From an uncultured Flavobacteriaceae bacterium (GTDB lineage Bacteria > Bacteroidota > Bacteroidia > Flavobacteriales > Flavobacteriaceae): a DNA stretch of 64,000 nt. The stretch lies in assembly GCA_964593255.1 (NCBI GenBank), contig CAZQGX010000011.1, positions 99-64,098 of the forward strand, written 5' to 3'. The notes under the pieces are model-generated. The model made no database searches. It was given only the letters and a program-made list of their open reading frames with translations, and was not told the DNA's origin. Position numbers and translations under genes: made by a program. Positions 5,458 to 23,536 of the stretch are shown piece after piece (within the stretch, counting starts at the first letter, position 1; the number at the start of each line of letters is the position of its first letter).

Positions 5458-6266
5458 AAAGTATGCGATTTATATATTCCTAATACTTGTAAAGACTCTA
5501 CCAGCAGGCCTATTTCTAGCAACACCTCGTCAAATTGTGATTGCTGCTCAAATTCAAGATCGGCTACAAAAGAGAAAACAAATGCTTGTTCAATAATTGG
5601 CACCGATTGTATTTTTGAAACATTGATTTTAAGACCTGCTATTTTAGTTAAAATTTTTGCAAGACTACCAGGATGGTGCCCTGCTGTAAAATAGATGGTA
5701 GCCTTATTTGTATTAGTTATAGAGGTAGGCGCTGCAGTTACAATAACAAAACGAGTTGCATTGTTAGTTATCTCTTGTATTTGATCGTTAATAATGTTTA
5801 AATGATACAATTGTGCGGCATGTGCACTAGCTATTGCCGCAACACCTTGTTTTTGATCTCTAAAAATGCGGTAGGCAGCTGCAGCGGTATCATCGGTTTC
5901 TAAAAGCTGCACGTGTGGGTGATTCTTAAAAAACGAGGTGCATTGCAATAGCGCCATAGGGTGCGAGTGCACCTCTTTAATGTCATTAATTTTTTGACCA
6001 GGTAGTGCCATCAGTTTATGATTGATGTATAGGTGATACTCGCCCACAATTTGCAAATTGTAATCCTTGATCAAGTTATAGTTGGGTAAAATGCTGCCAG
6101 CAATAGAATTACCTATGGCCATAATGCCGCGGTCTACCTCTTTGTTTGCTACTGCTATGGCAACTAGGTCAAAAGATGTACATTCTTGTAAGGACACCTT
6201 TTTATAAAGCTGCGCCGCGACCTGATCGTGATAAGAACCTTTGATTCCTTGTATGGCTATTTTCAT
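5454..6266 (-). CDS. pheA: Prephenate dehydratase
   Basis: PDT domain (IQGIKGSYHD, TRF motif NATRFVIV) plus a C-terminal ACT-like domain (PGSLAKIL). Confidence 0.9.
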   Translation of the reverse strand: MKIAIQGIKGSYHDQVAAQLYKKVSLQECTSFDLVAIAVANKEVDRGIMAIGNSIAGSILPNYNLIKDYNLQIVGEYHLYINHKLMALPGQKINDIKEVHSHPMALLQCTSFFKNHPHVQLLETDDTAAAAYRIFRDQKQGVAAIASAHAAQLYHLNIINDQIQEITNNATRFVIVTAAPTSITNTNKATIYFTAGHHPGSLAKILTKIAGLKINVSKIQSVPIIEQAFVFSFVADLEFEQQSQFDEVLLEIGLLVESLQVLGIYKSHTL

Positions 6267-6274
6267 TTTTTTGT

Positions 6275-6302
6275 AAAAAAAAAGCCCTGATCAAATCAGG
6301 AC
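6275..6302 (-). terminator. Intrinsic terminator (attenuator) 8 nt upstream of the pheA start
   Basis: The minus strand reads GUCCUGA-UUUGA-UCAGGGC (7-bp stem) followed by U9. Confidence 0.7.
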
Positions 6303-6329
6303 TTAATTGTGTTTTATATTTTTAAATTA

Positions 6330-6398
6330 TTACAATATTGTCCTTGCTTCTATAAAATAGAAGTAAAATCCATACCAGAAATAATTGCTTGTCGTCAT
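6330..6398 (-). CDS. Aromatic-rich leader peptide MTTSNYFWYGFYFYFIEARTIL
   Basis: Hand translation of the minus strand gives 22 codons. Residues 6-15 are YFWYGFYFYF. It lies upstream of the terminator and the Phe/Tyr biosynthesis operon. Confidence 0.65.
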   Translation of the reverse strand: MTTSNYFWYGFYFYFIEARTIL

Positions 6399-6553: not shown

Positions 6554-6936
6554 AAAGTTTATCTCGTTGCATAACAAGACGAAAGCGTGATAAAAGAAAA
6601 CTGTTGCCCCAATTATTAAAGTATAAAAGCAAAATAGAGTCGATGTCGTAAGGCTATATTATGAAATCGAGAAAAAACAAGCATAAGTCTTTATACTACA
6701 AATTTTATTTTTAGGTAAATTAATTGGCTAATCATAACATAATTTATAATTGTTTATCAACTATTTACAAATTATCGTTGATGTTTTATCTGGGTTTTAT
6801 TGCTGAAATTGATGCCTAAACAAGCCAGTATCCATAAACCAATCCTTAATAACAAAAGTAAATAAGATAGAAAATATAATTTCTTAATGTAACAAAAGTT
6901 ACTTTTAAAAATGATTAGTTAAAATAAATTTGAAGT

Positions 6937-7230
6937 ATGTATAAACATACATTCATTTTTATTGTCTTTTTGTTACTAAATTGTGAAAATGCTTATTCAC
7001 AAGACTTTACAATTGAAAAAAACATAGCTTTTCTTAGTAATGATAGTTTACAGGGTAGATTAGTAGGTTCACCGTCTGAAAAAATTGCGGCAACATACAT
7101 TGCGCAAGTATTTGAACATTACAATTTAATCCCCGCCTTGGATAATAGCTATTTTCAAAACTTTAATTTCACTTATCATAGTAAGCCTCACGATACCTTA
7201 ATAATCATACAGTATGAACAGAGTTTTTAA
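6937..7230 (+). pseudogene. N-terminal remnant of an M28-family peptidase
   Basis: The 97-aa ORF has a signal peptide and NIAFLSNDSLQGRLVGSPSEKIAATYIAQVFEHYNL, like the N-terminus of M28 aminopeptidases. It ends before any catalytic region and overlaps the next gene. Confidence 0.4.
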
Positions 7231-8824
7231 AATTGCTATCATCTTGCTTTTAATAGTGAGTTTTAAAGCACAAGCGCAAAGTAATTTTAATTACCAGCTT
7301 TCATTAGTGCCAGTTTCTGTCACAAATTTACCAGGGCTGCACTCATATGTTTATGCCCAGCATCAAGGTAAATGGCTAATTATCGGGGGACGTAAAGACG
7401 GGTTGCACGCCAGACAGCCATTTAATGCATTTCCAGCATCGCAAAACAATACAGATATGTATGTTGTAGATGTAGTAAATAACCAGGTTTGGTCTGCTTC
7501 TGTAAATAGTTTACCTACCTTAATAAATGAGCAGTTGCAATCAACAAACATGAATTTTTATCAAGATGGAGATTCTTTGTATATCATAGGTGGCTATGGC
7601 TTCTCAACTAGTGCAAATGATCATATAACTTATCCCTATCTTACTTCTGTTAATGTAAGTGGATTGATGAATGCTATAGAAAATAATCAACCTATTACAC
7701 CATATTTTAAACAGATTCAAGACAATATTTTTGCAGTATCAGGTGGGCACCTTAAAGAGTTAAATGGGCAATTCTATTTAGTGGGTGGACATCGTTTTGA
7801 TGGCCGCTATAATCCTATGGGCAACCCAACTTATACACAAGCTTACACAAATCAAATAAGGATATTTTCAATCGATAATTCTGGCACACAGCTCAGTTAC
7901 AACAACTATTCAGCAATAACAGATGCTGTTCATTTAAGAAGAAGGGATTACAATTTATTGCCTCAAATTTTCCCAAACGGTGATCAAGGGTTAACCATAT
8001 CTTCAGGAGTTTTTCAAATTAATGCAAACCTACCCTTTTTGTATCCCGTTGATATTACGGGTAGTGGCTATAATCCTATTACAACATTCAACCAGTATTT
8101 AAGCAACTATCACAGTCCTGTATTGTGCATGTATGATAGTGCTGCAAATAACATGCATTCCATTTTCTTTGGAGGTATGAGCCAGTATTATTACCAGAAT
8201 GGCAACCTAATTCAAGACAATTCTGTCCCTTTTGTTAAAACAATTAGCCGTGTAACTAGAGATGCAAATGGAAATTTAACTGAATATCAACTACCTATTG
8301 AGATGCCCAATTTAAAAGGCACAAGTGCAGAGTTTATACCTAATTTAAATCTACCTCATTATCCTAACAAGGTATTTAAGACTAATGATATAACTCAAAC
8401 TACTTTTATGGCGGGGCATATATACGGTGGTATCAGCAGTCCATCTTTAAATCCATTTTCAAATAATCAAACTACTACAACTAGTGCTGATAATTCTATT
8501 TATGAAGTATGGTTAACAACTACACCACTATCAACAGATGAATTTGAAATTGATGGAAAAAACCCATATGATGTAATTGTTTTTCCTAATCCATTTGATA
8601 ATTTATTCGCTGTGAAATTTAACGTAAATCAGACGGTTAAAGCCAGCTATTTTATAAGCAATAGTTTGGGACAAATCGTTAAAAAGACATCAAACCAAAA
8701 TTTCAACACAGGAGAAAACACCCTAAATATAAAAATTGATGAAGAACTTTCTTCAGGTCAATACACCATAACATTTGTATTTGACAACAAGTATTATGTC
8801 ACAAAAAAGATCGTAAAAAAATAA
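7214..8824 (+). CDS. T9SS C-terminal-target protein with Kelch-like beta-propeller repeats
   Basis: Signal peptide. Repeated ..W..IGG/..Y..GG motifs. The C-terminus VIVFPNPFDNLFAVKFN...YTITFVFDNKYYVTKKIVKK is a type A T9SS sorting domain. Confidence 0.75.
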   Translation: MNRVFKIAIILLLIVSFKAQAQSNFNYQLSLVPVSVTNLPGLHSYVYAQHQGKWLIIGGRKDGLHARQPFNAFPASQNNTDMYVVDVVNNQVWSASVNSLPTLINEQLQSTNMNFYQDGDSLYIIGGYGFSTSANDHITYPYLTSVNVSGLMNAIENNQPITPYFKQIQDNIFAVSGGHLKELNGQFYLVGGHRFDGRYNPMGNPTYTQAYTNQIRIFSIDNSGTQLSYNNYSAITDAVHLRRRDYNLLPQIFPNGDQGLTISSGVFQINANLPFLYPVDITGSGYNPITTFNQYLSNYHSPVLCMYDSAANNMHSIFFGGMSQYYYQNGNLIQDNSVPFVKTISRVTRDANGNLTEYQLPIEMPNLKGTSAEFIPNLNLPHYPNKVFKTNDITQTTFMAGHIYGGISSPSLNPFSNNQTTTTSADNSIYEVWLTTTPLSTDEFEIDGKNPYDVIVFPNPFDNLFAVKFNVNQTVKASYFISNSLGQIVKKTSNQNFNTGENTLNIKIDEELSSGQYTITFVFDNKYYVTKKIVKK

Positions 8825-13002: not shown

Positions 13003-13272
13003 ATGTATTTAGCACCAGAAAAAAAAGCAGAAATTTTCGCAAAGTACGGAAAAGATGCAAACGACACGGGTAACACCGACGCGCAAATCGCATTGTTTAC
13101 CATGCGTATCAATCACTTAACACTTCACTTAAAACAAAATCGTCACGACTACAATACAGAGCGTAGTCTTGTAAAACTTGTAGGTAAAAGACGTTCTCTT
13201 TTAGATTACAAGATGAAAAAAGATATTGTTGCTTACCGTGAATTGATCAAGGATTTAGGTATCAGAAAATAA
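13003..13272 (+). CDS. rpsO: 30S ribosomal protein S15
   Basis: 89 aa. GNTDAQIALFTMRINHLTLHLKQNRHDYNTERSL is the S15 signature region. Confidence 0.95.
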   Translation: MYLAPEKKAEIFAKYGKDANDTGNTDAQIALFTMRINHLTLHLKQNRHDYNTERSLVKLVGKRRSLLDYKMKKDIVAYRELIKDLGIRK

Positions 13273-13275
13273 TTA

Positions 13276-13307
13276 AATTGGGGACCTTGTGTCCCCAATT
13301 GGTTTTT
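13276..13307 (+). terminator. Intrinsic terminator after rpsO
   Basis: AATTGGGGAC-CTTGT-GTCCCCAATT followed by GGTTTTT. Confidence 0.8.
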
Positions 13308-13461
13308 GCGCAGCAGGTATCGCATCGCATGCGATATTCACCCAGGGTTGTGTTACATCGCATTTGTTATTGAATTGAATACAATTTGATTGTATCCGAC
13401 ACCGCAGACTACAAAAGCCCTTTGCAATGATGTATTTCATGGCAGGATTTATATGTTATTC

Positions 13462-13477
13462 CGCTTTCGCGAAAGCA
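13462..13477. repeat. Palindromic element, 15/16
   Basis: CGCTTTCGCGAAAGCA in the rpsO-pnp intergenic region. Confidence 0.9.
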
Positions 13478-13677
13478 GAATTAAAACCAATTATCGCAAC
13501 ACAGTACCAACACCGTACTGCAAAATAAAGCTGGTTTTTCATAAAGTAGCAAATTCGGTTTTTACTTTTTTATTGAACAATAAATACACTTCAAAGTTCA
13601 CTTTTCTAGTTTAAATTTGAATTGATTAACGCCTTCTCTACCACACACAACTTGAGATTAACGTTTAATATTCAATT

Positions 13678-15906
13678 ATGAAACCACAAGTTTTTAAACA
13701 GGTGATTAAAATGGCCAACGGGCCAGACATCACTATCGAAACTGGAGCGCTTGCAAAACAAGCACATGGATCTGTCGTAGTAACCTGCGGTAAGGCTATG
13801 CTTCTAGGAACTGTAGTGTCCAGCTACAAATCTACTGGACTAGACTTCTTACCTCTAACGGTAGACTACCGCGAGAAATTTGCCGCTGCCGGTAAATATC
13901 CTGGAGGTTTTTTTAAACGCGAGGCACGCCCTAATGACGGCGAGGTGCTTACCATGCGTCTTGTAGACCGTGTTCTACGTCCTCTTTTCCCTAAAGATTA
14001 CCATGCCGAGGTTCAGGTAATGATACAGCTTATGTCTCATGACGAGGACGTAATGCCCGACGCTATGGCTGGTCTTGCAGCGAGTGCATGTTTACAACTG
14101 TCTGACATACCATTTGAATGCCCTATTTCTGAAGTGCGCGTTGCACGTGTAGATGGCCAGTTTGTTATCAACCCAAGTTATGCACAACTAGAAGTTGCCG
14201 ACCTAGACATGATGATAGGCGCAAGTGCAGACAGCGTGATGATGGTAGAAGGTGAGATGCATGAAATATCTGAAAAAGATATGATCGCCGCAATAAAAGC
14301 TGCACATGACGCAATTAAAGACCAGTGTGCGGCGCAGGTTGCACTAGCCGAAGCAGTAGGCAAAAAAGAAGTACGCGAGTACGAAGGCGAGCGCGAGGAT
14401 GCTACCATCGAAGCTAAAGTTGCTGAGCTTGCTTATCAAAAAGTATACGACATCGCTAAAAAAGGAAGTGCCAAGCATGAGCGTAGCGCAGCCTTCAGCG
14501 AGGTGAAGGATGAAGTAAAAGCTACCTTCTCAGAAGAAGACCAGGCTGACAATGCAGACCTTATCTCTAAATACTTTTCAAAAACCCATAAAAAAGCAGT
14601 ACGCGATGTATTGCTTAAAGAAGGTGTGCGTTTAGATGGTCGTAAGACTACAGACATACGCGATATATGGTGTGAGGTAGATTACTTACCATCTACACAC
14701 GGTAGTGCTATTTTCTCACGTGGTGAAACACAAGCGCTTGCAACTGTAACACTAGGAACATCTCGTGATGCAAACATTATAGACATGGCAAGTGCCGAAG
14801 GTGAAGAGCGTTTTTACCTACACTACAACTTCCCACCATTCTCAACCGGTGAGGCGCGTCCACTTCGTGGAACTTCTCGTCGCGAAGTAGGACATGGTAA
14901 CCTTGCACAACGTGCATTGAAAAACATGTTACCAGCAGATTTGCCTTATACGGTACGTATCGTGTCTGAAGTACTGGAATCTAACGGTTCTTCTTCTATG
15001 GCAACGGTTTGTGCAGGAACTATGGCACTGATGGACGCAGGTCTTCCTATGAAGAAACCAGTATCTGGTATCGCTATGGGATTGATTACTGAAGGTGATA
15101 ACTACGCCGTTCTTTCAGACATTCTGGGTGATGAAGACCACTTAGGAGATATGGACTTTAAAGTTACGGGAACTGCAGACGGTATTACCGCTTGCCAAAT
15201 GGACATTAAAGTAAAAGGACTTTCTTACGAGATTCTGACAAACGCATTGATGCAAGCTCGTGACGGCCGTTTACACATTCTTAAAACACTTACCGACACT
15301 ATTCCAGCTCCAAATGCAGATGTGAAACCACATGCGCCTAAAATGGAGTCTATGGAAATAGAAGGCAAGTACATAGGTGCGGTAATAGGACCTGGTGGAA
15401 AAGTGATTCAAGAAATGCAAAAAGAAACAGATACCGTAATCAACATCAAGGAAGAAGGCGATATGGGTATTATAGAAATTGCAGGAACTGACCGCAATAA
15501 GATCAATGCAGCGTTAGAAAAAATCGCCAACATTATTTTTGAACCTAATGTAGGTGAGGTTTACAGCGTTAAAGTTGTTAAGATGTTGGAATTTGGCGCT
15601 GTGGTAGAATTTAGACCAGGTAAAGAAACATTACTGCACGTAAGCGAGTTTGATTACAAACGCATTGAAGACCCAAGTACGGTTCTTAAAGTTGGCGACG
15701 TTCTAGACGTTAAATACATGGGTGTTGACCCACGTACTAAGAAGCAAAAAGTTTCTCGTAAAGAGTGTATGCCTAAGCCCGAAGGTTGGGTAGAGCGTCC
15801 ACCACGCCAGCGTGACGATAAACGCAGCGGTGGTCGCGATGACCGTCGTGGTGGTGACCGTCGTCGCGATGACCGCAAGCCACGTCGTGATAACGATAGT
15901 GAATAA
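13678..15906 (+). CDS. pnp: Polyribonucleotide nucleotidyltransferase (PNPase)
   Basis: Two RNase PH domains, KH (IGPGGKVI) and S1 ([20 protein letters not shown]), plus an Arg/Asp-rich tail. Confidence 0.95.
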
Positions 15907-15926: not shown

Positions 15927-15963
15927 AAAATGCCCCTTGAGATTTCAAGGGGCATTTTTTTTT
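15927..15963 (+). terminator. Intrinsic terminator after pnp (member of a repeated terminator family)
   Basis: ATGCCCCTT-GAGATTTC-AAGGGGCAT followed by T10. Confidence 0.85.
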
Positions 15964-15976
15964 GTTTGTGTTATTT

Positions 15977-15992
15977 CGCTTTCGCGAAAGTT
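15977..15992. repeat. Palindromic element, 14/16, fused to the pnp terminator
   Basis: CGCTTTCGCGAAAGTT. Confidence 0.85.
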
Positions 15993-16121
15993 TAAAAGGT
16001 AGTATCTTATATGTAGTCAATTTTATTTGTATGGCAAATCACATAAAGTTAGAATAAACGCGCCTTTCTCGCCAGAAACCTTTTCATTTTTAAAACGAGC
16101 CTTACCATTTGGTTTCAGACC

Positions 16122-16337
16122 TCAATTTTCATTTAAATCTGTCCAAATTCTGATGAAATAAATTCCGTCAGTTTTGGAAAAATAGCTCTGAAATCTTTGC
16201 CAGTTCTGTTCTATTTCACCCTTTTCCATGTCGGTATTCCAAAATGATACTACAACATGGTCAGCGTTTTCTAGGCCAGTATTTTGGGGCAGATTAAATT
16301 TCTCTTTCAAAAACTTGAAGTTCGCATACGTACTCAA
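16122..16337 (-). CDS. Hypothetical protein, possibly the 3' part of a decayed gene
   Basis: 71-aa ORF. The same frame continues upstream to about 16440 across a single in-frame TAG. Confidence 0.3.
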   Translation of the reverse strand: MSTYANFKFLKEKFNLPQNTGLENADHVVVSFWNTDMEKGEIEQNWQRFQSYFSKTDGIYFIRIWTDLNEN

Positions 16338-16462
16338 ACTGTCTGTAGCTTGCTCACAGGATTTGAATACACCACTAATTGTTTTTGCCTCTAACTAGTT
16401 TAAGGCAGTTTGCGTACAGGCCTCATCACCTTCAAAACAGAGCGGCTCCTTATTTTTATTAA

Positions 16463-16726
16463 TTACGTAATTTTTTGCATTATTGACTCATAGACCATCA
16501 TTTTAATCTCATCTTCCGACGGAACTCCGGTAGGCAGAACATCAATAATATTGGGGGCGGCTGGCAATGTATTTATGTGCAGTTTAATGTCTTCTTGGTT
16601 ATACACCTCTAACGCTGGAATTCCCATAACCATTTTCATGACACTACCGCAGGAAACCATAAGAAGTAGAAAGACTACTGCTACGATTTTTAAAGATATT
16701 CTAGAAATAGTAAATTTGATATCCAT
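16463..16726 (-). CDS. Small putative lipoprotein
   Basis: Hydrophobic signal ending LLLMVSCGS. Confidence 0.4.
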   Translation of the reverse strand: MDIKFTISRISLKIVAVVFLLLMVSCGSVMKMVMGIPALEVYNQEDIKLHINTLPAAPNIIDVLPTGVPSEDEIKMMVYESIMQKIT

Positions 16727-16800
16727 GTCCTCTTAATATTAATACGAAAAATTTTGGAATTCAAATTTACTTCAAACATTGCTATTATCACTTCATGTTA

Positions 16801-16836
16801 AAATGCCCCTTGAAATTTCAAGAGGCATTTTTTTGC
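16801..16836. terminator. Hairpin terminator, same family as the pnp terminator
   Basis: AAATGCCCCTTGAAATTTCAAGAGGCATTTTTTT, about 100 nt downstream of the minus-strand lipoprotein gene. A/T runs on both sides. Confidence 0.6.
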
Positions 16837-16941
16837 TTTAATAATCCTTTTCCCTTTTTTTACAAAATTTCATTAGGAAATGAACTATGATAGACCCAAC
16901 TAGAACGGGAATTATAAAAGACAAAAACAATTCCATATCTA

Positions 16942-17787
16942 CTACCATTTAGACATCCAGCGACCAATTCGTCCCAAGGCACCCGTAGAACCCATTATTG
17001 CGGTCGTTAATCCAGAAGCTGCTACAATTCGCCAATTAATGCCGCCACCGGAACCTAAATAATGCTGATATCCTACAGATAATCCAGCTCCTATGATAGC
17101 ACCGGCAATATCTGCGCAAATCCATGGCGCTAGCTTTTGTTGCTCATTCGCCTCTAAACTATTAGCAGCCCACCATTCTAAGGAATTAATACTAATGTCC
17201 AGAATAATAAAGGAATAGTCAGTCCCCGCATGTGAGGTATTTTGACTTATATCCCATTGTGATTTCAAATCTAAAAGATTTTGATAAACCGCTTGATTTG
17301 AAAGTGAATTTGACAAATTCAACCGTATATCGGCAATTATGGAATTTACTATCAATTGATCTCTTTCACTAATAAGTCCTTCTGTTTTATATAATTCATT
17401 TAACTCCTCTAACTGATAAATACGGTTATTAAGTTCAACACCTTCATTTAAAGCCTTTTTTACGTTTGTAATGTCGTATAAATCAGTGTTTTCAGCTAGA
17501 AATAATTGTGCTGTTTCTAAATCATAAAGTAAGGAAGAATTAGAACTAAAATGTTGGGATTGAAAAGCAGCTAGAGATTGAAGTGCTTGTTCTTCAGAAT
17601 TATACTCTGAGGAATAAGCGAAATTTCTCATGGTATGAGTGAGAAAGTCGTTATGAATCATTCCTAAAGATGTATTTTGGTTGTTAGAACTTTTCACTTG
17701 TGTTAATTCATCTTCTTCACTACAAGAATTAAACACTAAACAAAGTCCAAAAAGGACAAACGACACCAATTTCATTTTTGTTTTCAT
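16942..17787 (-). CDS. Cassette 1 lipoprotein with a glycine-zipper C-terminus
   Basis: Signal and lipobox MKTKMKLVSFVLFGLCLVFNSC. Helical Asn/Leu-rich middle. C-terminus ICADIAGAIIGAGLSVG...GSGGGINWRIVAASGLTTAIMGSTGALGRIG. Confidence 0.7.
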   Translation of the reverse strand: MKTKMKLVSFVLFGLCLVFNSCSEEDELTQVKSSNNQNTSLGMIHNDFLTHTMRNFAYSSEYNSEEQALQSLAAFQSQHFSSNSSLLYDLETAQLFLAENTDLYDITNVKKALNEGVELNNRIYQLEELNELYKTEGLISERDQLIVNSIIADIRLNLSNSLSNQAVYQNLLDLKSQWDISQNTSHAGTDYSFIILDISINSLEWWAANSLEANEQQKLAPWICADIAGAIIGAGLSVGYQHYLGSGGGINWRIVAASGLTTAIMGSTGALGRIGRWMSKW

Positions 17788-17853
17788 GATTTTTATATTT
17801 TAAAAGTTATGATGCAAAAATATTGTAGCTATTTTGTTTTTTATGCGCCAAAT

Positions 17854-17870
17854 TTTACTAATTTAGTAAA
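17854..17870. promoter_or_regulatory. Perfect 17-bp palindrome TTTACTAATTTAGTAAA, candidate XRE operator (cassette 1)
   Basis: Lies in the 114-nt divergent intergenic region. An extra TTACTAA half-site is at 17874-17880. Confidence 0.55.
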
Positions 17871-17901
17871 TTCTTACTAAAAACGCATAAACTTTATACT
17901 T

Positions 17902-18288
17902 ATGATTGCTGCAAAACATCTAAAAGACCTGCGTTTAAAAAATAACTATACCCAAGAACATCTTGCCACAAAGCTAGGTATTTCTCAAAAAACCTATTCA
18001 AATCTTGAAAGTGGTACAGGAAAAATAACCCTGGAGCATTTATTAAAAATTGCAGCGGTTTATGCAATGCCGGTTGTACCCTTAACAGCATTGCTCACAA
18101 ACACGAGCCCAGAGTTCATGACCGCACTTGAAGAAGAAAACAAGGAAAGTACGGCTTACGAATTGTACCATGGTGTAAATGCAAACCTTACCCTAGAGTT
18201 ACTTACATCTTATAAAGCGCAAATAGACCAGCTAACTAAATTGAATGCAGTTTTAGAGGAACGCCTGCGTGTTCTATCCAGAGTGTAG
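17902..18288 (+). CDS. XRE-family helix-turn-helix transcriptional regulator (cassette 1)
   Basis: LKDLRLKNNYTQEHLATKLGISQKTYSNLESG is a canonical Cro/C1-type HTH. C-terminal coiled-coil-like tail. Confidence 0.85.
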   Translation: MIAAKHLKDLRLKNNYTQEHLATKLGISQKTYSNLESGTGKITLEHLLKIAAVYAMPVVPLTALLTNTSPEFMTALEEENKESTAYELYHGVNANLTLELLTSYKAQIDQLTKLNAVLEERLRVLSRV

Positions 18289-18304
18289 CATTGATAATGA
18301 TATT

Positions 18305-18340
18305 AAAATGCTCCTTGAAATTTCATGGGGCATTTTTTTG
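18305..18340 (+). terminator. Terminator after XRE-1, same family as the pnp terminator
   Basis: AAAATGCTCCTTGAAATTTCATGGGGCATTTTTTT. Confidence 0.75.
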
Positions 18341-18352
18341 TTTGTGTAATTT

Positions 18353-18368
18353 CGCTTTTGCGAAAGTT
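18353..18368. repeat. Palindromic element, 13/16, fused to the XRE-1 terminator
   Basis: CGCTTTTGCGAAAGTT. Confidence 0.7.
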
Positions 18369-18404
18369 TGGAAAACCACAATTCATAAGAATGGACTAAG
18401 ATTA

Positions 18405-18566
18405 TTAAATATTCTTACTATATGCGCCCTTTTTAAAGTTGTAGGTTACACCTAAAATATAGAAAATTAAAAACCCTAACCACCAATAAATGTACGGTTC
18501 ATTGTGCATGAAAATTAACAATGCAATGGGATATAAATAGATTCTGTAAGGTATTTTAAAAAGCAT
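18405..18566 (-). CDS. Small membrane protein (orphan immunity candidate)
   Basis: Start trimmed to the internal Met (MLFKIPYRIYLYPIALLIF...). Two hydrophobic segments. Confidence 0.4.
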   Translation of the reverse strand: MLFKIPYRIYLYPIALLIFMHNEPYIYWWLGFLIFYILGVTYNFKKGAYSKNI

Positions 18567-18567
18567 T

Positions 18568-18774
18568 TTAATTATGGTAAAAATGATTATATAGTATCCA
18601 TGTGTTGCGGTAAGCGAAAAACCCACCGAGACCTAATGCAACAAAGACAAGTAATACATAGCCCGCGCCTACTTTTTTGTCTGATAAAATCGCCTTAATT
18701 ATTTTTATAAAACCCACTATACCGTAATAAAGATAGTACAACGCAAGCAGCATTCCTAAAATACGTAAAAACAT
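18568..18774 (-). CDS. Small membrane protein (orphan immunity candidate)
   Basis: MFLRILGMLLALYYLYYGIVGF...GYVLLVFVALGLGGFFAY, two TM segments. An alternative TTG start is at 18783. Confidence 0.45.
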   Translation of the reverse strand: MFLRILGMLLALYYLYYGIVGFIKIIKAILSDKKVGAGYVLLVFVALGLGGFFAYRNTWILYNHFYHN

Positions 18775-18817
18775 AACATTCAATTTACCATAAAGACCAA
18801 ACTAATATCGTATTTGA

Positions 18818-18928
18818 TTAAGTGCTTTTAACAAGCAAAGTCACATCAACAACTTGCTCACTACAAGAATTAAACACTAAACAAAGCCCAAATAACGCAA
18901 TCGGCACTAAACTAAAAACTTTTTTCAT
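18818..18928 (-). pseudogene. Truncated lipoprotein stub sharing the cassette lipobox
   Basis: Hand translation gives MKKVFSLVPIALFGLCLVFNSCSEQVVDVTLLVKST*. The FGLCLVFNSCSE part matches cassettes 1 and 2 at the nucleotide level (CACTACAAGAATTAAACACTAAACAAAG). Confidence 0.55.
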
Positions 18929-19214
18929 GACTTTAAAATTTTAGTTGTTAAAACAAGACAAACCATTTGTCTTGAAAGATACACTTGATTTGCAAATCAT
19001 TATAAAGAAAAAAAAAAGAATCTTCCTAACGTATTCTTCGTATAAAAACACTTTTAACAACTTTTTAACCATTAAACCATTTTTGTTCAATTTTTAAATC
19101 CTTTTAATGTTAATTAAACAAACAAAATACGCACCATGCGCAGTTCCTTAAATTCAGATTGTCTCTGGTAGCATGTTCTGAATGACCCTGCTTGTACGGC
19201 AGGACTAACAACAT

Positions 19215-19250
19215 AAAAGCCCTGTAACTTTTTATTTACGGGGCTTTTTA
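19215..19250. terminator. Bidirectional hairpin terminator
   Basis: AAAAGCCCTGTAA-CTTTTTAT-TTACGGGGCTTTTT, 47 nt downstream of the minus-strand 19297 gene. Confidence 0.65.
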
Positions 19251-19296
19251 CGGCTATTGAAAATCTTAGATTTAAATTCTGAAAAAGAGCTTTCTC

Positions 19297-19503
19297 TTAC
19301 TTGTTTTTTAACAAAGCAAATAATTTGGACATTAAATAGTCAAAAACATAAACGAAAAATAGTATTAAAATAAAACCAATAACCGTGTCAAAAAGTAAAA
19401 AAGTCCAGCTACCACGGTAGTAATTATCCATAAATAAAAGTCGTGCTAGAACTGAAACACTTGTTAAAATAAATGCTGTCCATATTTTATATTTAACTAC
19501 CAT
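19297..19503 (-). CDS. Small 2-TM membrane protein translationally coupled to the cassette 2 lipoprotein (immunity candidate)
   Basis: The ATG at 19503 is 2 nt after the lipoprotein stop (19506-19508). Sequence MVVKYKIWTAFILTSVSVLARLL...VIGFILILFFVYVF. Confidence 0.55.
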   Translation of the reverse strand: MVVKYKIWTAFILTSVSVLARLLFMDNYYRGSWTFLLFDTVIGFILILFFVYVFDYLMSKLFALLKNK

Positions 19504-19505
19504 GA

Positions 19506-20300
19506 TTATGACCAAAATTTACAAGATAGATACGCTCTTAAATATCCCTCAGCAAATCCAGCAAGTCCTCCTATAATAGCACCCCCCAAAGCACCTACAC
19601 CACCTGCTGGCAAAGCTAAAACCCCCAGACTTAAAAAACCTCCTATTGTAAAACCACTTAATCCTCCTACAATAACACCACCAACCATTCCTATGACGCC
19701 ATCTAGAATAGCGGATCGTAAAGCTTCTTTCCTACAATCCTTACCCTTTTGTAAAATTATTTCTTCAGATTTGTCTATTAATGCAAAAATCAGACTATAA
19801 ACTTGCAATTCTGGGTTTGTAAGAACATCAATAAAATATTGATTTTTAAGGTCGATTAACCCCTCTAGGTCATTATCTGATGCAAATTGAAACAGGTTTA
19901 GAGCATATTCCTTTTGTTTTTCACTAAGATGTTCCGCATTTAATATATCATCTTCGTTTAGAATGTGGTTCTGAGACGCTACATTATTGACTAAGATCTG
20001 TTCAATATCTGTGTATTCGGTAAAGTTATTTAATATGTTCTCATTTAAAGTGTAATAATTAGAAACTTCATGATTAACATCAACATTTGGTTCGGTCAAT
20101 TGGTCAGAATAAACCTCTAAGCTTGTTAGCATTTGTTCTGCAATAATGGAAGCCTCGAAGTCAGATAAATAGTTAAATTGAAAATTTTTAGTTGTGGTCG
20201 ACAAAGTATTTTCAGTGTTTAAATTATCCTCACTACAAGAATTAAAAACTAAGCAAAGTCCAAAAAGGATAAACGGCATTAATTTCATTTTTGTTTTCAT
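19506..20300 (-). CDS. Cassette 2 lipoprotein with a glycine-zipper C-terminus
   Basis: Start trimmed to MKTKMKLMPFILFGLCLVFNSC, which reproduces the 114-nt intergenic spacing of cassette 1. C-terminus GVIGMVGGVIVGGLSGFTIGGFLSLGVLALPAGGVGALGGAIIGGLAGFAEG. Confidence 0.7.
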   Translation of the reverse strand: MKTKMKLMPFILFGLCLVFNSCSEDNLNTENTLSTTTKNFQFNYLSDFEASIIAEQMLTSLEVYSDQLTEPNVDVNHEVSNYYTLNENILNNFTEYTDIEQILVNNVASQNHILNEDDILNAEHLSEKQKEYALNLFQFASDNDLEGLIDLKNQYFIDVLTNPELQVYSLIFALIDKSEEIILQKGKDCRKEALRSAILDGVIGMVGGVIVGGLSGFTIGGFLSLGVLALPAGGVGALGGAIIGGLAGFAEGYLRAYLSCKFWS

Positions 20301-20366
20301 AATATATGTTGTTTTAAAATTATGATGCAAAGATGTTATCGCTATTTTGTATTTCATGCGCTAAAT

Positions 20367-20383
20367 TTTACTAATTTAGTAAA
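20367..20383. promoter_or_regulatory. Perfect 17-bp palindrome TTTACTAATTTAGTAAA (cassette 2)
   Basis: Same sequence and same position as in cassette 1. Confidence 0.55.
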
Positions 20384-20414
20384 TGCTTACTAAAAACGCA
20401 TAAACTTTATACCT

Positions 20415-20801
20415 ATGATTGCTGCAAAACATTTAAAAGACCTGCGTTTAAAAAATAACTATACCCAAGAACATCTTGCCACAAAGCAAGGTATTTCTCA
20501 AAAAACATATTCAAATCTTGAAAGTGGTACAGCAAAAATAACGCTGGAGCATTTATTAAAAATTGCAGCGGTTTATAAAATGCCGGTTGTACCATTAACA
20601 GCACTACTTACAAACACCAGCCCAGAGTTCATGACCGCACTTGAAGAAGAAAACAAGGAAAGTACGCCTTACGAATTGTACCATGGTGTAAATGCAGACC
20701 TTACTCTAGAGTTACTTACATCTTACAAAGCGCAAATAGACCAGCTAACTAAACTGAATGCAGTTTTGGAAGAGCGCCTACGGGTTCTATCCAAAGTGTA
20801 G
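20415..20801 (+). CDS. XRE-family HTH regulator (cassette 2)
   Basis: 128 aa, differing from the 17902 copy at only 6 positions by eye. Confidence 0.85.
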   Translation: MIAAKHLKDLRLKNNYTQEHLATKQGISQKTYSNLESGTAKITLEHLLKIAAVYKMPVVPLTALLTNTSPEFMTALEEENKESTPYELYHGVNADLTLELLTSYKAQIDQLTKLNAVLEERLRVLSKV

Positions 20802-20817
20802 CATTGTTAATGATATT

Positions 20818-20853
20818 AAAATGCCCCTTGATATTTCAAGGGGTGTTTTTTTT
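20818..20853 (+). terminator. Terminator after XRE-2, same family
   Basis: AAAATGCCCCTTGATATTTCAAGGGGTGTTTTTTTT. Confidence 0.7.
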
Positions 20854-20866
20854 GTTGGTGTTATTT

Positions 20867-20882
20867 CGCTTTCACTAAAAAG
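20867..20882. repeat. Half-decayed palindromic element fused to the XRE-2 terminator
   Basis: CGCTTTCACTAAAAAG. The left arm is kept and the right arm is degraded. Confidence 0.5.
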
Positions 20883-20901
20883 GGTTGTATGATAACGACC
20901 A

Positions 20902-21216
20902 TTAATAAAACAATGCCAGCAAAATCTCTTTATACGATTTCCCATTGCCCAAAATGACTACATCATAAAATTTAACGCAATTTCGAATAAAGAGATAGGT
21001 AACAAAAATGATGGCGCCAATTGTAAGAATCAAGTGACCATTGTAAACTTCCCCGTTATCTACAAATTTGGACCTTGCCACTTTCAGGCCGATATAACAG
21101 GAGCGAAGAATCCTTATGCAAATAAATTGCAAGAACAAGAACAAAAATATATCTATAACAACAGACATCAGCAAAAAATTAATGTGGTTAACGCATACAC
21201 TATGCAAATTCTGCAA
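20902..21216 (-). CDS. Hypothetical membrane protein
   Basis: 104 aa with two or three hydrophobic segments. No recognised family. Confidence 0.35.
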   Translation of the reverse strand: MQNLHSVCVNHINFLLMSVVIDIFLFLFLQFICIRILRSCYIGLKVARSKFVDNGEVYNGHLILTIGAIIFVTYLFIRNCVKFYDVVILGNGKSYKEILLALFY

Positions 21217-21224
21217 CCTTTATC

Positions 21225-21503
21225 TCAACACCAATGAGTCCTAGACCCGCTCTCACTGCCGAAGCTCTTTCTTTCGATTTCTAATAGAGTAAGTCTAGCT
21301 TCAACACGTGATAAGGCCCGTCCAGTAAAGGCTCTTTGAAGATCCCTAGCTCCCAAAACCGCGCCTGCACAACTATAAACTTCAAAACTACTAATATCTT
21401 TGGCAACGCTTGTTTTTGAAGAAACCAGTCTCGCCGCGATAATCATTTGGTAAACAGCAGCAATCATTACTTTGGTATAATCAATTTCTTCTTTGTATTG
21501 CAC
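21225..21503 (-). CDS. Hypothetical protein
   Basis: 92-aa ORF with a GTG start, in a locally GC-richer patch. No recognised family. Confidence 0.25.
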   Translation of the reverse strand: MQYKEEIDYTKVMIAAVYQMIIAARLVSSKTSVAKDISSFEVYSCAGAVLGARDLQRAFTGRALSRVEARLTLLEIERKSFGSESGSRTHWC

Positions 21504-21698
21504 ACTATCGAATGATTATACTTTTTGAATATTAAGTTATAATGCTTAAAAGCATATGCATTACTTGACATAGAAGAATGGTAATAAGTACGATTAATTC
21601 TCAAAAGATTTACAAATATTTAAATCCTTCAGACATTACATTAAACATAAAAAACATGTTGCATACAATTTCTCAAATTTAAAGATGTTTTTGAAATG

Positions 21699-22001
21699 CT
21701 AGACGTTTTTATGTTTAGGTGGAAACGCCGCTAGCACTAAATTTACTATTGGCACTAAAAAAAGCCACTTATTAAATTTGGTTTCATTTAGTCTTCTCAT
21801 ACCTAATGTCAAAAACGGTACAAGAAAAAATATTCTAGTTACCATGGCAACATTATTACCAAAAAGATCGAGACCTTTAGCAAATCCAATTAGCGGACTG
21901 ACAATAAAAAAATAAAACAATACGAATATCCAGAATTCTTTTACACTGGCTTTTTTAGTAATATTGAATACGTTGCTAAAGGGTTGAATTATATATTTCA
22001 T
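21699..22001 (-). CDS. DUF805-family membrane protein
   Basis: KEFWIFVLFYFFIV...RRLNETKFNKWLFLVPIVNLVL matches the DUF805 pattern (RRLHD..SGWW.LL..iP). Confidence 0.6.
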   Translation of the reverse strand: MKYIIQPFSNVFNITKKASVKEFWIFVLFYFFIVSPLIGFAKGLDLFGNNVAMVTRIFFLVPFLTLGMRRLNETKFNKWLFLVPIVNLVLAAFPPKHKNV

Positions 22002-22016
22002 AGCTAGTTGTTTTAT

Positions 22017-22591
22017 TTAGTCATTTGGAGCACGATCATCTAGACAGTTCCGTGAGGTGCAAGATGCAGCTTCTTCGGCAATACAGGCAAAACCAGCAAA
22101 AGAACAAACAATTTTTTCAAAGGTGTTCATTCCTTCATAAATATTGTATTGAACGCATTGCCTGACACCTTCAACCGAACATTCATCTCTTCTAGGATAA
22201 TCATTTATTTTAGGTAGTAATAAATATAAGTTTTGTCTATTTATTATAAAGGACTCGTCTTCTATTCCGTTGAAATAAAATGTAATTTTACCATCAATTT
22301 TATTTTTGTTTTTATTTAAAAAATCTTCAAACAATTGGACATCCCCTGTTGATAAAATATCGTCAGGAATCTTTATGTTTGTTTCAAATTTACTACTTAG
22401 AATTAAATTAGGAATCTCTTCATTAATTGTATTTAATAATACTTTTGAGTTATATTTTAATTGAATTAAATCAACAGGTTCAAATTTATATGTGTAAACT
22501 TTTTCTTGTGGTGAAATATCTTCTTGTTCGCAACTTGCCGTAATTAGAGCAAGTGCTGCCAATATATCAATAATTTCATTTTTGTTTTCAT
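22017..22591 (-). pseudogene. Cassette 3 lipoprotein (Cys-rich mature part) with a frameshifted signal peptide
   Basis: The ATG at 22591 gives MKTKMKLLIYWQHLL*. The long ORF (LAALALITASCEQ...) is in the -1 frame from position 30 of that reading. A 1-nt gain would restore MKTKMKLLI.LAALALITASC. Confidence 0.5.
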
Positions 22592-22706
22592 AATTTACGT
22601 TATTTTAAAAGTTATGATGCAAAAATATTGTAGCTATTTTGTTTTTAATGCGCCAAATTTTACTAATTTAATAAGTACTTACTAAAAACGCATAAACTTT
22701 ATACCT

Positions 22707-22724
22707 ATGATTGCTGCTACTTAA
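22707..22724 (+). pseudogene. Remnant of the third XRE gene (MIAAT*)
   Basis: The intergenic region 22592-22706 aligns with cassettes 1 and 2. Homology stops about 12 nt into the XRE CDS. Confidence 0.6.
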
Positions 22725-22754
22725 CCCAATGCCATGATTTAAACTTGATAATTA

Positions 22755-22770
22755 CGCTTTCGCTAAAGCG
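22755..22770. repeat. Palindromic element, 15/16, at the right edge of the island
   Basis: CGCTTTCGCTAAAGCG. Confidence 0.9.
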
Positions 22771-22847
22771 AAATAATAGTAAAAATACAATAAAGCAAAT
22801 GCAGGAAATAACAAATGAAAGCAAAATGTAAAAAGCCATCAAAAACC

Positions 22848-22855
22848 TACCTTTG
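22848..22855 (+). promoter_or_regulatory. -7 box TACCTTTG for rpe
   Basis: TAnnTTTG motif, 22 nt upstream of the rpe ATG. Confidence 0.45.
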
Positions 22856-22876
22856 CATAACCTTTAAAAAATATCA

Positions 22877-23536
22877 ATGGCGACGAAAATAGCACCATCT
22901 ATACTAGCGGCAGATTTTGCCAATTTACAACGAGACATAGAAATGATCAATCACAGCGATGCCGACTGGTTTCATATTGATATTATGGACGGTGTTTTTG
23001 TGCCTAATATTTCTTTCGGTATGCCGGTGCTAGAGGCTATTGTTAAACACGCCACAAAAACCATTGATTGTCACTTGATGATTGTAGACCCTGATCGTTA
23101 TGTAGAGACTTTTGCAAGGTTGGGTTGTGATATTCTTACAGTGCATTATGAGGCCTGTACACACTTGCACCGCACTTTACAACTTATCAAATCTCAAGGT
23201 ATGAAGGCTGGCGTGGCACTTAATCCACATACCCCTGTAGATTTATTAAGCGATGTGATTCAAGACATAGATATGGTGTGCTTAATGAGTGTGAACCCAG
23301 GTTTTGGAGGGCAAAGTTTCATAGAAAATACTTACAATAAAGTAAGAAAGCTTAAAAATCTTATTGATGTCAAGGATGCTACAACCCTAATCGAAATAGA
23401 TGGTGGCGTGACCAATAAAAACGCAAAACAGCTAGTACAGGCTGGGGCAAATGTGCTAGTTGCTGGCAGTTATGTTTTTAAGGCTAGCGACCCCACAGCG
23501 ACTATTAAGGATTTAAATGAATTGGTGCAATTTTAG
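22877..23536 (+). CDS. rpe: Ribulose-phosphate 3-epimerase
   Basis: IAPSILAADF, HIDIMDG.FVPN and VNPGFGGQ.F motifs. Confidence 0.95.
   Translation: MATKIAPSILAADFANLQRDIEMINHSDADWFHIDIMDGVFVPNISFGMPVLEAIVKHATKTIDCHLMIVDPDRYVETFARLGCDILTVHYEACTHLHRTLQLIKSQGMKAGVALNPHTPVDLLSDVIQDIDMVCLMSVNPGFGGQSFIENTYNKVRKLKNLIDVKDATTLIEIDGGVTNKNAKQLVQAGANVLVAGSYVFKASDPTATIKDLNELVQF

Follow-up and report, generated by a model that had tools for sequence, protein, structure and literature searches.

Candidate toxin–immunity cassettes with a common lipoprotein signal and XRE regulator at the pnp–rpe locus of an uncultured Flavobacteriaceae bacterium

Polymorphic toxin systems, in the sense of Zhang et al. (2012; PMC3482391), join a shared N-terminal trafficking region to unrelated C-terminal toxin domains. 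Two proven systems resemble the locus described here. The SitA proteins of Myxococcus carry a lipobox signal and a shared N-terminus followed by unrelated C-terminal domains, with the SitI immunity protein encoded downstream, and each genome holds several cassettes of strain-variable content (PMC5562445). In Caulobacter, the glycine-zipper proteins CdzC and CdzD are retained on the outer membrane, and CdzI, a small inner-membrane protein with several transmembrane segments, provides immunity (PMC5380434). Here we analysed a window of 64,000 nucleotides (nt) from an uncultured marine Flavobacteriaceae bacterium (GenBank assembly GCA_964593255.1, contig CAZQGX010000011.1, positions 99–64,098). 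Between pnp and rpe, the window carries an array of cassettes, each with an XRE regulator gene, a divergent lipoprotein gene and a small membrane-protein gene, several of them in decay. The block had been singled out in an original prediction made from the letters of the DNA alone. On balance it is probable that the cassettes encode surface- or vesicle-borne lipoprotein membrane toxins and their cognate immunity proteins, with one XRE repressor in common.

The genes pnp (13678–15906, plus strand) and rpe (22877–23536, plus strand) border about 6.95 kb in which there is no recognisable housekeeping gene, and nearly all plausible genes of the block are on the minus strand. A repeat search detected a 117-nt intergenic segment three times at 89–96% identity and a 300-nt segment twice at 91%. 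According to a binned alignment, the repeat unit is about 657 nt long: 17710–18366 (module 1) and 20223–20879 (module 2) are 80–97% identical in every 30-nt bin, and the identity falls to about 50% on either side with sharp edges. The unit consists of the signal peptide with four to five codons past the lipobox Cys, a 114-nt divergent promoter region, the XRE gene and a terminator. Two copies are complete and one is truncated, and the DNA of the payloads (the mature parts of the lipoproteins) sits between the units. Module 3 has in common only about six lipoprotein codons, the promoter and four XRE codons. As the unit flanks each payload, it can serve as a handle for homologous recombination.

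The elements of the unit are confined to the block. Within the window, a 35-nt probe of the signal-peptide region matches only here, and all four sites of the terminator palindrome AAAATGCCCCTTGAnATTTCAAGGGGCATTTT also fall inside the block; none was expected by chance in either search. The first palindrome, the terminator of pnp, is followed by the motif TTTGTTTGTGTTATTTCGCTTTCGCGAAAGTTT (15927–15993); it represents the 3' end of a repeat unit and bounds the array on the left. The second copy (16800–16831) ends the operon of the lipoprotein Lipo1, and the third and fourth copies, each with the following motif, end repeat unit 1 (18305–18369) and repeat unit 2 (20818–20883). An inverted copy of the post-terminator motif with a 77% match (22752–22790) forms the right boundary. 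The array comprises at least six cassettes or remnants in differing states of decay.

These results agree with the original prediction in the housekeeping flanks, in the coordinates of the XRE genes and of a short XRE stub, and in the three copies of a 114–115-nt divergent promoter, which are 89–96% identical. The proposed AT-richness is real and only modest, with a G+C fraction of 0.326 against 0.359 in the remaining window, which places the block within the lowest 2.6% of equal-sized windows. The three copies of one module correspond to the two full units and the truncated one, but the word triplicated undercounts the array. The prediction had overlooked a fourth signal-peptide stub, a pseudogene of a further payload family with an intact partner open reading frame (ORF), a broken lipoprotein gene of 234 amino acids (aa) and the fourfold terminator.

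The lipoproteins Lipo1 (281 aa; 16942–17787, minus strand) and Lipo2 (264 aa; 19506–20300, minus strand) share the N-terminus MKTKMKL..FGLCLVFNSCSE. In the translations of both and of their relatives, the signal ends in the lipobox L(V/A)FNS-C, as in a type II signal peptide. The mature N-termini read C-SEEDE in Lipo1, which is acidic, C-SEDNL in Lipo2, and also C-EQEDI. They resemble SDDFE and SDDDD, which experiments have defined as lipoprotein export signals in Flavobacterium and Bacteroides (PMC5080379), and on this likeness surface exposure of the lipoproteins is plausible. Beyond the signal peptide, the three mature proteins are unrelated: BLASTP gives E > 0.9, and hhalign aligns residues 1–26/32 only. 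An apparent kinship of Lipo1 and Lipo2, seen in BLASTP without composition correction (E 4e-15), was lost on removal of the signal peptide and in hhalign, and was rejected.

The AlphaFold model of Lipo1 is all-helical (pLDDT 78, pTM 0.78) and ends in a hydrophobic hairpin of two long helices, rich in glycine zippers (residues ~220–280). Three GxxxG and six small-xxx-small triplets are present. Among 5.8 billion proteins, Lipo1 has only seven relatives, and according to the family alignment the best conserved part is the C-terminal hairpin with the common motif APWIAADIAGA...STGA.GRIGRW. A 36-aa ORF with a single transmembrane segment (16838–16948, minus strand) begins with an ATG that overlaps the Lipo1 stop (ATGGTAG), and is the candidate immunity partner of Lipo1. 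The same ORF lies downstream of the Lipo1 orthologues in two related loci, L001 and L003, at 75–86% identity to that of the window.

The C-terminus of Lipo2 contains two four-glycine GxxxG ladders (residues 204/208/212/216 and 236/240/244/248), which are bracketed by Cys189 and Cys260. Lipo2 gave only two matches in the 5.8 billion proteins and has a single relative, in the locus L046, which keeps both Cys residues at an overall identity of 47%. The ATG of a 68-aa ORF with two transmembrane segments (19297–19503, minus strand; 72 aa from a TTG) is located 2 nt past the Lipo2 stop, and this ORF is the candidate immunity partner of Lipo2. In L046, a small ORF (5433–5573) overlaps the stop of the Lipo2 relative and resembles the 68-aa ORF by eye, with no score computed.

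The third payload, Lipo3 (22017–22592, minus strand), is Cys-rich, with six Cys in the last 55 residues, and has no GxxxG. Its 181-aa ORF (22017–22562, from the TTG at 22562) is in another frame than the conserved ATG at 22592, a 1-nt insertion or deletion lies near 22563–22570, and the signal-peptide core of module 3 differs from that of modules 1 and 2. Lipo3 is thus probably frameshifted, either a pseudogene or a gene whose signal peptide is weakened. A DUF805 membrane protein (100 aa, three hydrophobic segments; PF05656, 5.9e-8) is encoded 15 nt downstream (21699–22001, minus strand) and is a candidate partner. The original prediction had described about 25 conserved first codons and three unrelated mature proteins of 281, 264 and about 190 aa, the last Cys-rich. 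The unrelatedness, the first two lengths and the Cys-rich third protein hold, and so do the conserved codons of Lipo1 and Lipo2, but Lipo3 shares only about six of these codons, and its 181-aa ORF is not in frame with the ATG. Small membrane ORFs downstream of each lipoprotein gene had been recognised correctly.

Two further lipoprotein genes of the window are remnants. The decayed cassette at 18405–18928 (minus strand) contains the fourth signal-peptide stub of 36 aa (18818–18928; MKKVFSLVPIALFGLCLVFNSCSEQ... and then a stop), a 71-aa ORF with two transmembrane segments (18568–18783) and a second small membrane ORF, of 73 aa (18405–18626), that is 71% identical to L001 4481–4702. A 370-nt non-coding gap (18929–19296) separates the stub from the Lipo2 operon; by eye, it includes a hairpin followed by a T-run at about 19215–19250, without an Rfam match. 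The gap is probably a deletion scar where an XRE/promoter unit was lost. An Rfam scan of the whole block returned nothing above noise. The gene of the 234-aa lipoprotein is a pseudogene (16122–16726, minus strand) with the fragments 16463–16726 (87 aa) and 16122–16337 (71 aa). They are 66–68% identical to residues 1–85 and 167–200 of the protein (71% at the DNA level), which is intact in L001 (4719–5423) and L003 (10277–10981).

Lipo1, Lipo2 and Lipo3 gave no match in Pfam, NCBIfam, PADLOC or PHROGs. The family search of the mature payloads had been suggested as a check by the original prediction, and no housekeeping lipoprotein family was matched. No match was found for the Lipo1 family in a PDB sequence-profile search, nor by Foldseek for the Lipo1 model in the PDB or BFVD (best E 0.4, TM-score about 0.15). 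The alpha-pore-forming toxins SmhB and ClyA were the top Foldseek rows; their scores (E 0.4, TM-score 0.14) are at chance level and were given no weight. For all block proteins and 40 members of the further payload family, the searches of Pfam, NCBIfam, PADLOC and PHROGs returned HTH_3, DUF805 and sub-threshold noise only. Outside the helix-turn-helix (HTH) proteins, the weak PHROG matches were phrog_12855 (the DUF805 ORF) and phrog_6470 (E 0.0047), which are membrane-protein or unknown-function families.

This further family, here called family b, is represented in the window by a pseudogene (21188–21626, minus strand), which tblastn aligned at 43% and 76% identity to P0033, an intact member in the related array of L001 (3182–3919). 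The N-terminus is absent; the remainder is interrupted by four in-frame stops and a frameshift, and the terminal motif itself contains a stop. Next to it, an 88-aa ORF with two transmembrane segments is intact (20902–21216, minus strand; 88 aa from the ATG at 21168, 104 aa from a TTG). It is 80% identical to L003 8583–8849, which trails an intact family-b gene. The intact partner (20902–21168) beside a dead payload looks like an orphan immunity gene, and the ORF is a candidate for that role toward the family-b payload.

An exhaustive HMMER search of 1.84 billion representatives assigned 88 clusters to family b at E up to 1e-3. The proteins are secreted, mostly with a lipoprotein-type signal, and have variable bodies and a conserved C-terminal domain of ~57 residues, C..A.G...(K/R)KA..K....A.R.LGPIG.A..V..F..C. 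Across 40 sequences, two Cys residues are invariant together with LGPIGVAIAV..F..C. In the AlphaFold model of P0033 the C-terminal domain is helical (pLDDT 83.5); the model has no Foldseek match in the PDB or BFVD, and the PDB sequence-profile search was also empty. According to hhalign and BLASTP, Lipo1, Lipo2 and Lipo3 do not belong to family b. Within the payload families, the conservation lies in the hydrophobic C-termini and not in the surface-exposed body.

A scan of contig collections with the trimmed C-terminal alignment yielded 24 metagenomic family-b loci, 22 of them with a complete gene. An ORF of 48–88 aa begins within about 30 nt of the payload stop, or overlaps it, in 21 of the 22, and in the remaining locus the small ORF is 88 nt downstream. 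Eighteen of the downstream ORFs form one homologous family with two transmembrane segments. In the locus L021 (4196–6811), a cassette of a family-b gene and a two-transmembrane ORF (5662–6392) lies between a full SDR gene and its duplicated 5' fragment, and the neighbouring small ORF is duplicated too. This suggests an insertion with local duplication.

The regulator XRE1 (128 aa; 17902–18288, plus strand) has an N-terminal HTH_3 domain (Pfam PF01381, 1.5e-14, residues 7–56), and its C-terminal half resembles a coiled coil by eye. XRE2 (128 aa; 20415–20801, plus strand) is 95% identical to XRE1 at the protein level. The third gene is reduced to a stub encoding MIAAT before a stop (22707–22724, plus strand), with the remainder deleted; the rpe-proximal XRE gene of L001 is full length. 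Only eight relatives were found among the 5.8 billion proteins, and a profile scan of representative genomes, among which the species of the window itself is apparently missing, gave one true relative only, L007. The paralogues are 88–100% identical within one genome and ~74% identical between genomes. As they are closer within than between genomes, recent duplication or gene conversion is indicated. Three paralogues (L001 2390–2869 and 3939–4418, L003 8001–8480) have ATA in place of the ATG start of the window genes, and gene callers lengthen such genes to 159 aa through operator DNA.

The three promoter copies (17788–17901, 20301–20414 and 22593–22706) contain the operator palindrome TTACTAA-T-TTAGTAA, 33–47 nt upstream of the XRE start, and in addition a third half-site. 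In copy 1 the operator is TTACTAATTTAGTAA (17855–17869) and the third half-site is CTTACTAAAAA; the operator is at 20368–20382 in copy 2 and, with one mismatch, at 22660–22674 in copy 3. The palindrome occurs in these three promoter copies only within the 64 kb. In module 1 the minus strand carries a Bacteroidetes-type −7 box, TATTTTTG (TAnnTTTG), which precedes the ATG of Lipo1 by 27 nt, and module 3 has such a box at the same distance upstream of its lipoprotein start. A sigma-70 promoter scan was also made, and is uninformative for this phylum. In Nonlabens arenilitoris (L006), two copies of the palindrome are kept upstream of a 48%-identical XRE gene. In the locus L025, TTACTAA half-sites adjoin a 37%-identical XRE gene that is divergent from a family-b gene.

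From its position and conservation, the palindrome is the presumed binding site of the XRE protein, which would repress the operons. In its likeness to known controllers, the protein matches a HipB-like model in NCBIfam (2.3e-10) and the HTH_VI, capH and C-protein models of PADLOC. The HipB score is 40 bits, below the family cut-off of 79. The XRE gene is divergent from a gene for an exported lipoprotein, which is not the arrangement of a type II toxin–antitoxin antitoxin such as HipB or HigA.

Arrays of this kind occupy the pnp–rpe interval in several metagenomic relatives and also in N. arenilitoris, a sequenced species. There are four XRE genes with lipoproteins in L001, at least three in L003 and in L004, and one XRE gene with two lipoproteins in L006. 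The DNA of module 1 is collinear with that of L001 and L003 and ~87% identical to it, a value that equals that of pnp. The other cassettes differ among the genomes, and Lipo2 is unique to the window in this comparison; its only relative adjoins rpe in L046. A distant relative of Lipo1, P0030, is located near pnp and rpe fragments in L047, where a 52-aa transmembrane ORF overlaps its stop. The block has no integrase ORF, no tRNA and no phage or plasmid DNA similarity, by which an origin from a mobile element was rejected. Since the same site carries arrays in the relatives and the identity of module 1 equals that of pnp, the block is not an imported island. These comparisons mark it as a chromosomal locus that is conserved in place, hypervariable in content and not recently acquired. 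The earlier label of accessory island is misleading, and the variable cassette content, for which a comparison of this interval in relatives had been proposed, was indeed observed.

Several observations were made in the related arrays, which are often decayed. The XRE gene at L003 9590–9976 is split into ORFs of 44 aa and 79 aa, and the Lipo1 orthologue at L001 1525–2370 is split into a signal-peptide ORF and a 239-aa ORF. At L046 4301–4620 and L047 1884–2406, genes of the Lipo2 and Lipo1 families adjoin rpe without an XRE gene. The upstream regions of the two share a leader of ~70 nt (TTTGCAAAT...CTAAAAAC.AG..AAGCCGAAAA.CGT...GAGTAGGCATTAA), which may be a different regulatory element. L047 (1–5354) contains two 99.6%-identical copies of the lipoprotein gene and the 52-aa ORF with the pnp and rpe fragments between them; the duplicate is probably an artefact of metagenome assembly. 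Downstream of a Cys-rich lipoprotein in L001, a 257-aa protein (6674–7447) with GMTHL...YGAGHF motifs is TraB/GumN-like by eye, and may represent another type of partner or immunity protein.

The following mechanism is proposed. In each cassette, a divergent promoter with TTACTAA-N-TTAGTAA would serve the XRE gene on one side and, on the opposite side, an operon of a lipoprotein and a tiny inner-membrane protein. The shared type II signal peptide, together with the acidic residues that follow the lipidated Cys, would route the payloads to the outer membrane, where they are probably located on the outer face or in vesicles. The hydrophobic C-terminal module, which may be a glycine-zipper hairpin, a two-Cys helical domain or a Cys-rich knot, would then damage the membrane of neighbours without the matching small membrane protein, which would protect the producer. 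Near-identical XRE proteins acting on identical operators would switch all cassettes together. By recombination through the repeat unit, cassettes would be duplicated, deleted and swapped between strains, with orphan immunity genes and dead toxins as the remains of this turnover.

Five features stand behind this proposal: one trafficking head with unrelated payloads, a tiny membrane protein that is family-specific and translationally coupled, conservation of the payload C-termini, turnover at a fixed site, and an orphan partner. Taken together, they make up the signature of a toxin– or bacteriocin–immunity locus. Moreover, the proven SitA/SitI and Cdz systems indicate that the components can work as proposed.

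Compared with polymorphic toxin systems as defined above, the cassettes have a shared N-terminal trafficking region and unrelated C-terminal domains, and the shared part is only a signal peptide without a carrier domain. Such systems also have a cognate immunity gene immediately downstream that varies with the toxin domain; its putative counterparts here are the family-specific small membrane ORFs, which always follow the payload directly. Orphans and strain replacement at one locus are seen in the dead payload with its intact partner, in the signal-peptide stub and in the comparison with L001, L003, L006 and L046. A recognised toxin fold or family in the C-terminal domains was not found in the sequence and structure searches. 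The toxin–immunity logic of the original prediction has thus gained comparative support from the unrelated payloads, the partner ORFs, the variable content and the orphan partner, but no known toxin domain or fold has come with it.

The cassettes are like SitA/SitI in the lipobox signal, the shared N-terminal part, the divergent C-termini, the downstream partner, the number of cassettes and the strain variation. The C-termini of SitA, however, are recognisable nucleases or tRNases that act in the cytoplasm, and SitI proteins are soluble, for example of the SUKH family, whereas the payload modules of the window, short and either hydrophobic or Cys-rich, belong to no known family and have tiny membrane proteins as partners. 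Only the signal peptide and about five residues are shared among the window cassettes. SitA delivery requires the myxobacterial TraA/B outer-membrane exchange, a sitB gene is often present, and the cassettes ride Mx-alpha prophage-like units. Judged by their gene content, the window cassettes have no sitB-like gene, mobile element or extra conserved gene.

As in the Cdz proteins, an extended hydrophobic glycine zipper is present in Lipo1 and, as two ladders, in Lipo2, and the Lipo2 ladders with the two-transmembrane partner fit the picture of CdzC/D and CdzI. Cdz is a two-protein toxin that forms aggregates resistant to sodium dodecyl sulfate; its proteins are about 85 aa long, with RTX-type signals and the dedicated type I system cdzAB. 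In the window, in contrast, the zipper is the C-terminus of a lipoprotein of 260–280 aa exported by Sec and signal peptidase II, and no small RTX-signal proteins with type I secretion were found, as there are no ABC/MFP genes in 15927–22876.

The pneumococcal blp loci encode small toxins with a nucleotide-conserved leader and divergent mature parts, followed by membrane immunity genes; their content varies among strains, and orphan immunity genes and pseudogenes are common. The double-glycine leader is cut by a C39-ABC exporter, and the regulation is by a peptide pheromone and a two-component system. The window resembles blp in the conserved leader, the small membrane partners, the variable content, the orphans and the pseudogenes, and differs in the lipoprotein signal, the XRE repressor and the about five times larger mature proteins. 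A class II bacteriocin with a double-glycine leader and a C39 exporter is not indicated, with no exporter in the block and no NCBIfam bacteriocin match.

In the phylum of the window, the BSAP toxins have lipoprotein signal peptides and are released in vesicles, and the resistance of the producer comes from replacement of the receptor gene, not from an immunity protein. Unlike the window payloads they are large MACPF-domain proteins, and no MACPF similarity was found in the block with Pfam and Foldseek. The NCBIfam BSAP5b model touches only the signal-peptide region of Lipo1 (E 0.087). BSAPs, pore-forming toxins of gut Bacteroidales, are described as secreted and antibacterial (PMC12853789). 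In the full-text literature, no description of such a system as that of the window was found in Flavobacteriia; this and the family searches agree with the original prediction, which knew of no system of this composition.

Three other explanations were weighed. The payloads might be alternative surface coats which evade phages, grazers or host recognition, with the small ORFs as assembly partners. The models for this are the Vlp/Vsp lipoproteins of Mycoplasma, whose tandem genes have a near-identical promoter and prolipoprotein signal and divergent mature regions made of tandem repeats; they switch by slippage of a repeat tract in the promoter or by site-specific inversion. The Vlp/Vsp loci have, to our knowledge, neither partner membrane ORFs nor regulator genes. 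The window shares with them the constant promoter and signal. Here, too, tandem genes with divergent mature parts keep the nucleotide sequence of their 5' region and signal peptide, the N-termini resemble surface-export signals, and the content of one site depends on the strain. But the window lacks a phase-variation device and repetitive mature regions: the longest homopolymer in the promoters is 6 nt, the coding regions have only trivial tandem repeats, and the block has no invertase or recombinase ORF. The most conserved part of each family is the hydrophobic C-terminus and not the exposed body, and a variable coat does not predict family-specific membrane ORFs or an intact partner beside a dead payload. 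We regard this explanation as unlikely, and the surface-antigen alternative of the original prediction is weakened by the missing switch and the unexplained partner ORFs.

A slightly lower probability is given to effectors directed at the own cell, that is, an XRE-controlled abortive-infection, defence or addiction system in which the lipoprotein, once de-repressed, permeabilises the own envelope and the small ORF restrains it. The likeness of the XRE protein to repressors or controllers of defence and toxin–antitoxin systems, the hypervariable site as in defence islands and the membrane-active look of the payload domains would agree with it. An exported lipoprotein with a surface-export-like N-terminus is, however, odd for a suicide effector, and the XRE gene, which most family-b loci lack, is divergent and not co-transcribed with the payload. 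Besides, the proteins without an HTH have no PADLOC or PHROG match beyond the two weak PHROG matches, and phage and plasmid similarity is lacking. Lowest of all, and very improbable in our judgement, ranks a set of ordinary envelope lipoproteins, tandemly expanded SlyB/PCP-like glycine-zipper paralogues that stabilise the envelope and have no role in conflict. Glycine-zipper lipoproteins are common envelope components, tandem duplication is evident, and the locus lies among housekeeping genes. However, Lipo1 and Lipo2 match no glycine-zipper lipoprotein family of Pfam (SlyB/PCP, Rick_17kDa_Anti) at E up to 1, the payloads are mutually unrelated, and the families are very rare (7, 2 and 8 relatives in the 5.8 billion proteins). 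Content that differs in close relatives and frequent pseudogenes are not housekeeping traits.

Toxin–immunity cassettes remain the preferred explanation, and several points weigh against them. The payloads match no toxin, bacteriocin or pore-former in Pfam, NCBIfam, PADLOC, PHROGs, the PDB sequences or Foldseek, and no delivery machinery was identified for them; a lipid-anchored protein would still need a route to the inner membrane of the target. A role of the hydrophobic C-terminus in membrane anchoring or oligomerisation would fit equally well, and adjacent genes co-occur for many reasons. Two payload genes of the window are decayed or frameshifted. A similarity of the 71-aa ORF of the decayed cassette to an immunity-like ORF of 64 aa in L001 (E 0.005 over 17 residues) is too weak and was not counted. 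Most family-b loci have no XRE gene beside them, with one present in only 2–3 of the 14 that extend far enough upstream, and regulation is therefore not a core feature. As XRE is rare beside family b, the conserved core is the payload with the small membrane protein, and XRE is the accessory of one clade.

Upstream of the block, a 405-nt gap (13273–13677) without a convincing ORF separates rpsO (13003–13272) from pnp. It could be a pnp leader.

Polymorphic toxin–immunity cassettes as a kind are already known. New in the present locus are the families of payloads and partners, the XRE/operator repeat unit and, for this phylum, the head formed by a lipoprotein signal. It is possible, though we hold it rather less firmly than the toxin reading of the locus itself, that marine Bacteroidota have an undescribed class of weapons: lipoprotein-anchored toxins on the surface or on vesicles, whose modules are glycine-zipper hairpins or disulfide-closed helical domains, each neutralised by a membrane protein of 50–100 aa. 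In the Nonlabens-like clade, the 657-nt unit would be both the control element and the recombination handle. The pair of two-Cys domain and two-transmembrane protein is widespread (at least 88 clusters), which makes the idea testable beyond one genome.

Flavobacteriia are major degraders of marine organic matter, but less is known of their interbacterial toxins than of those in gut Bacteroidales or Proteobacteria. If the toxin reading is true, the locus would add several new toxin and immunity families without a Pfam or structural relative. It would also extend delivery by a lipoprotein anchor, earlier proven only for the myxobacterial SitA toxins, and would offer a compact natural cassette system, with one operator and repressor and one export signal, that could be reused for the display and testing of payloads. 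If that reading is wrong, the array still illustrates clearly how cassettes turn over and evolve in concert at one fixed site of the chromosome.

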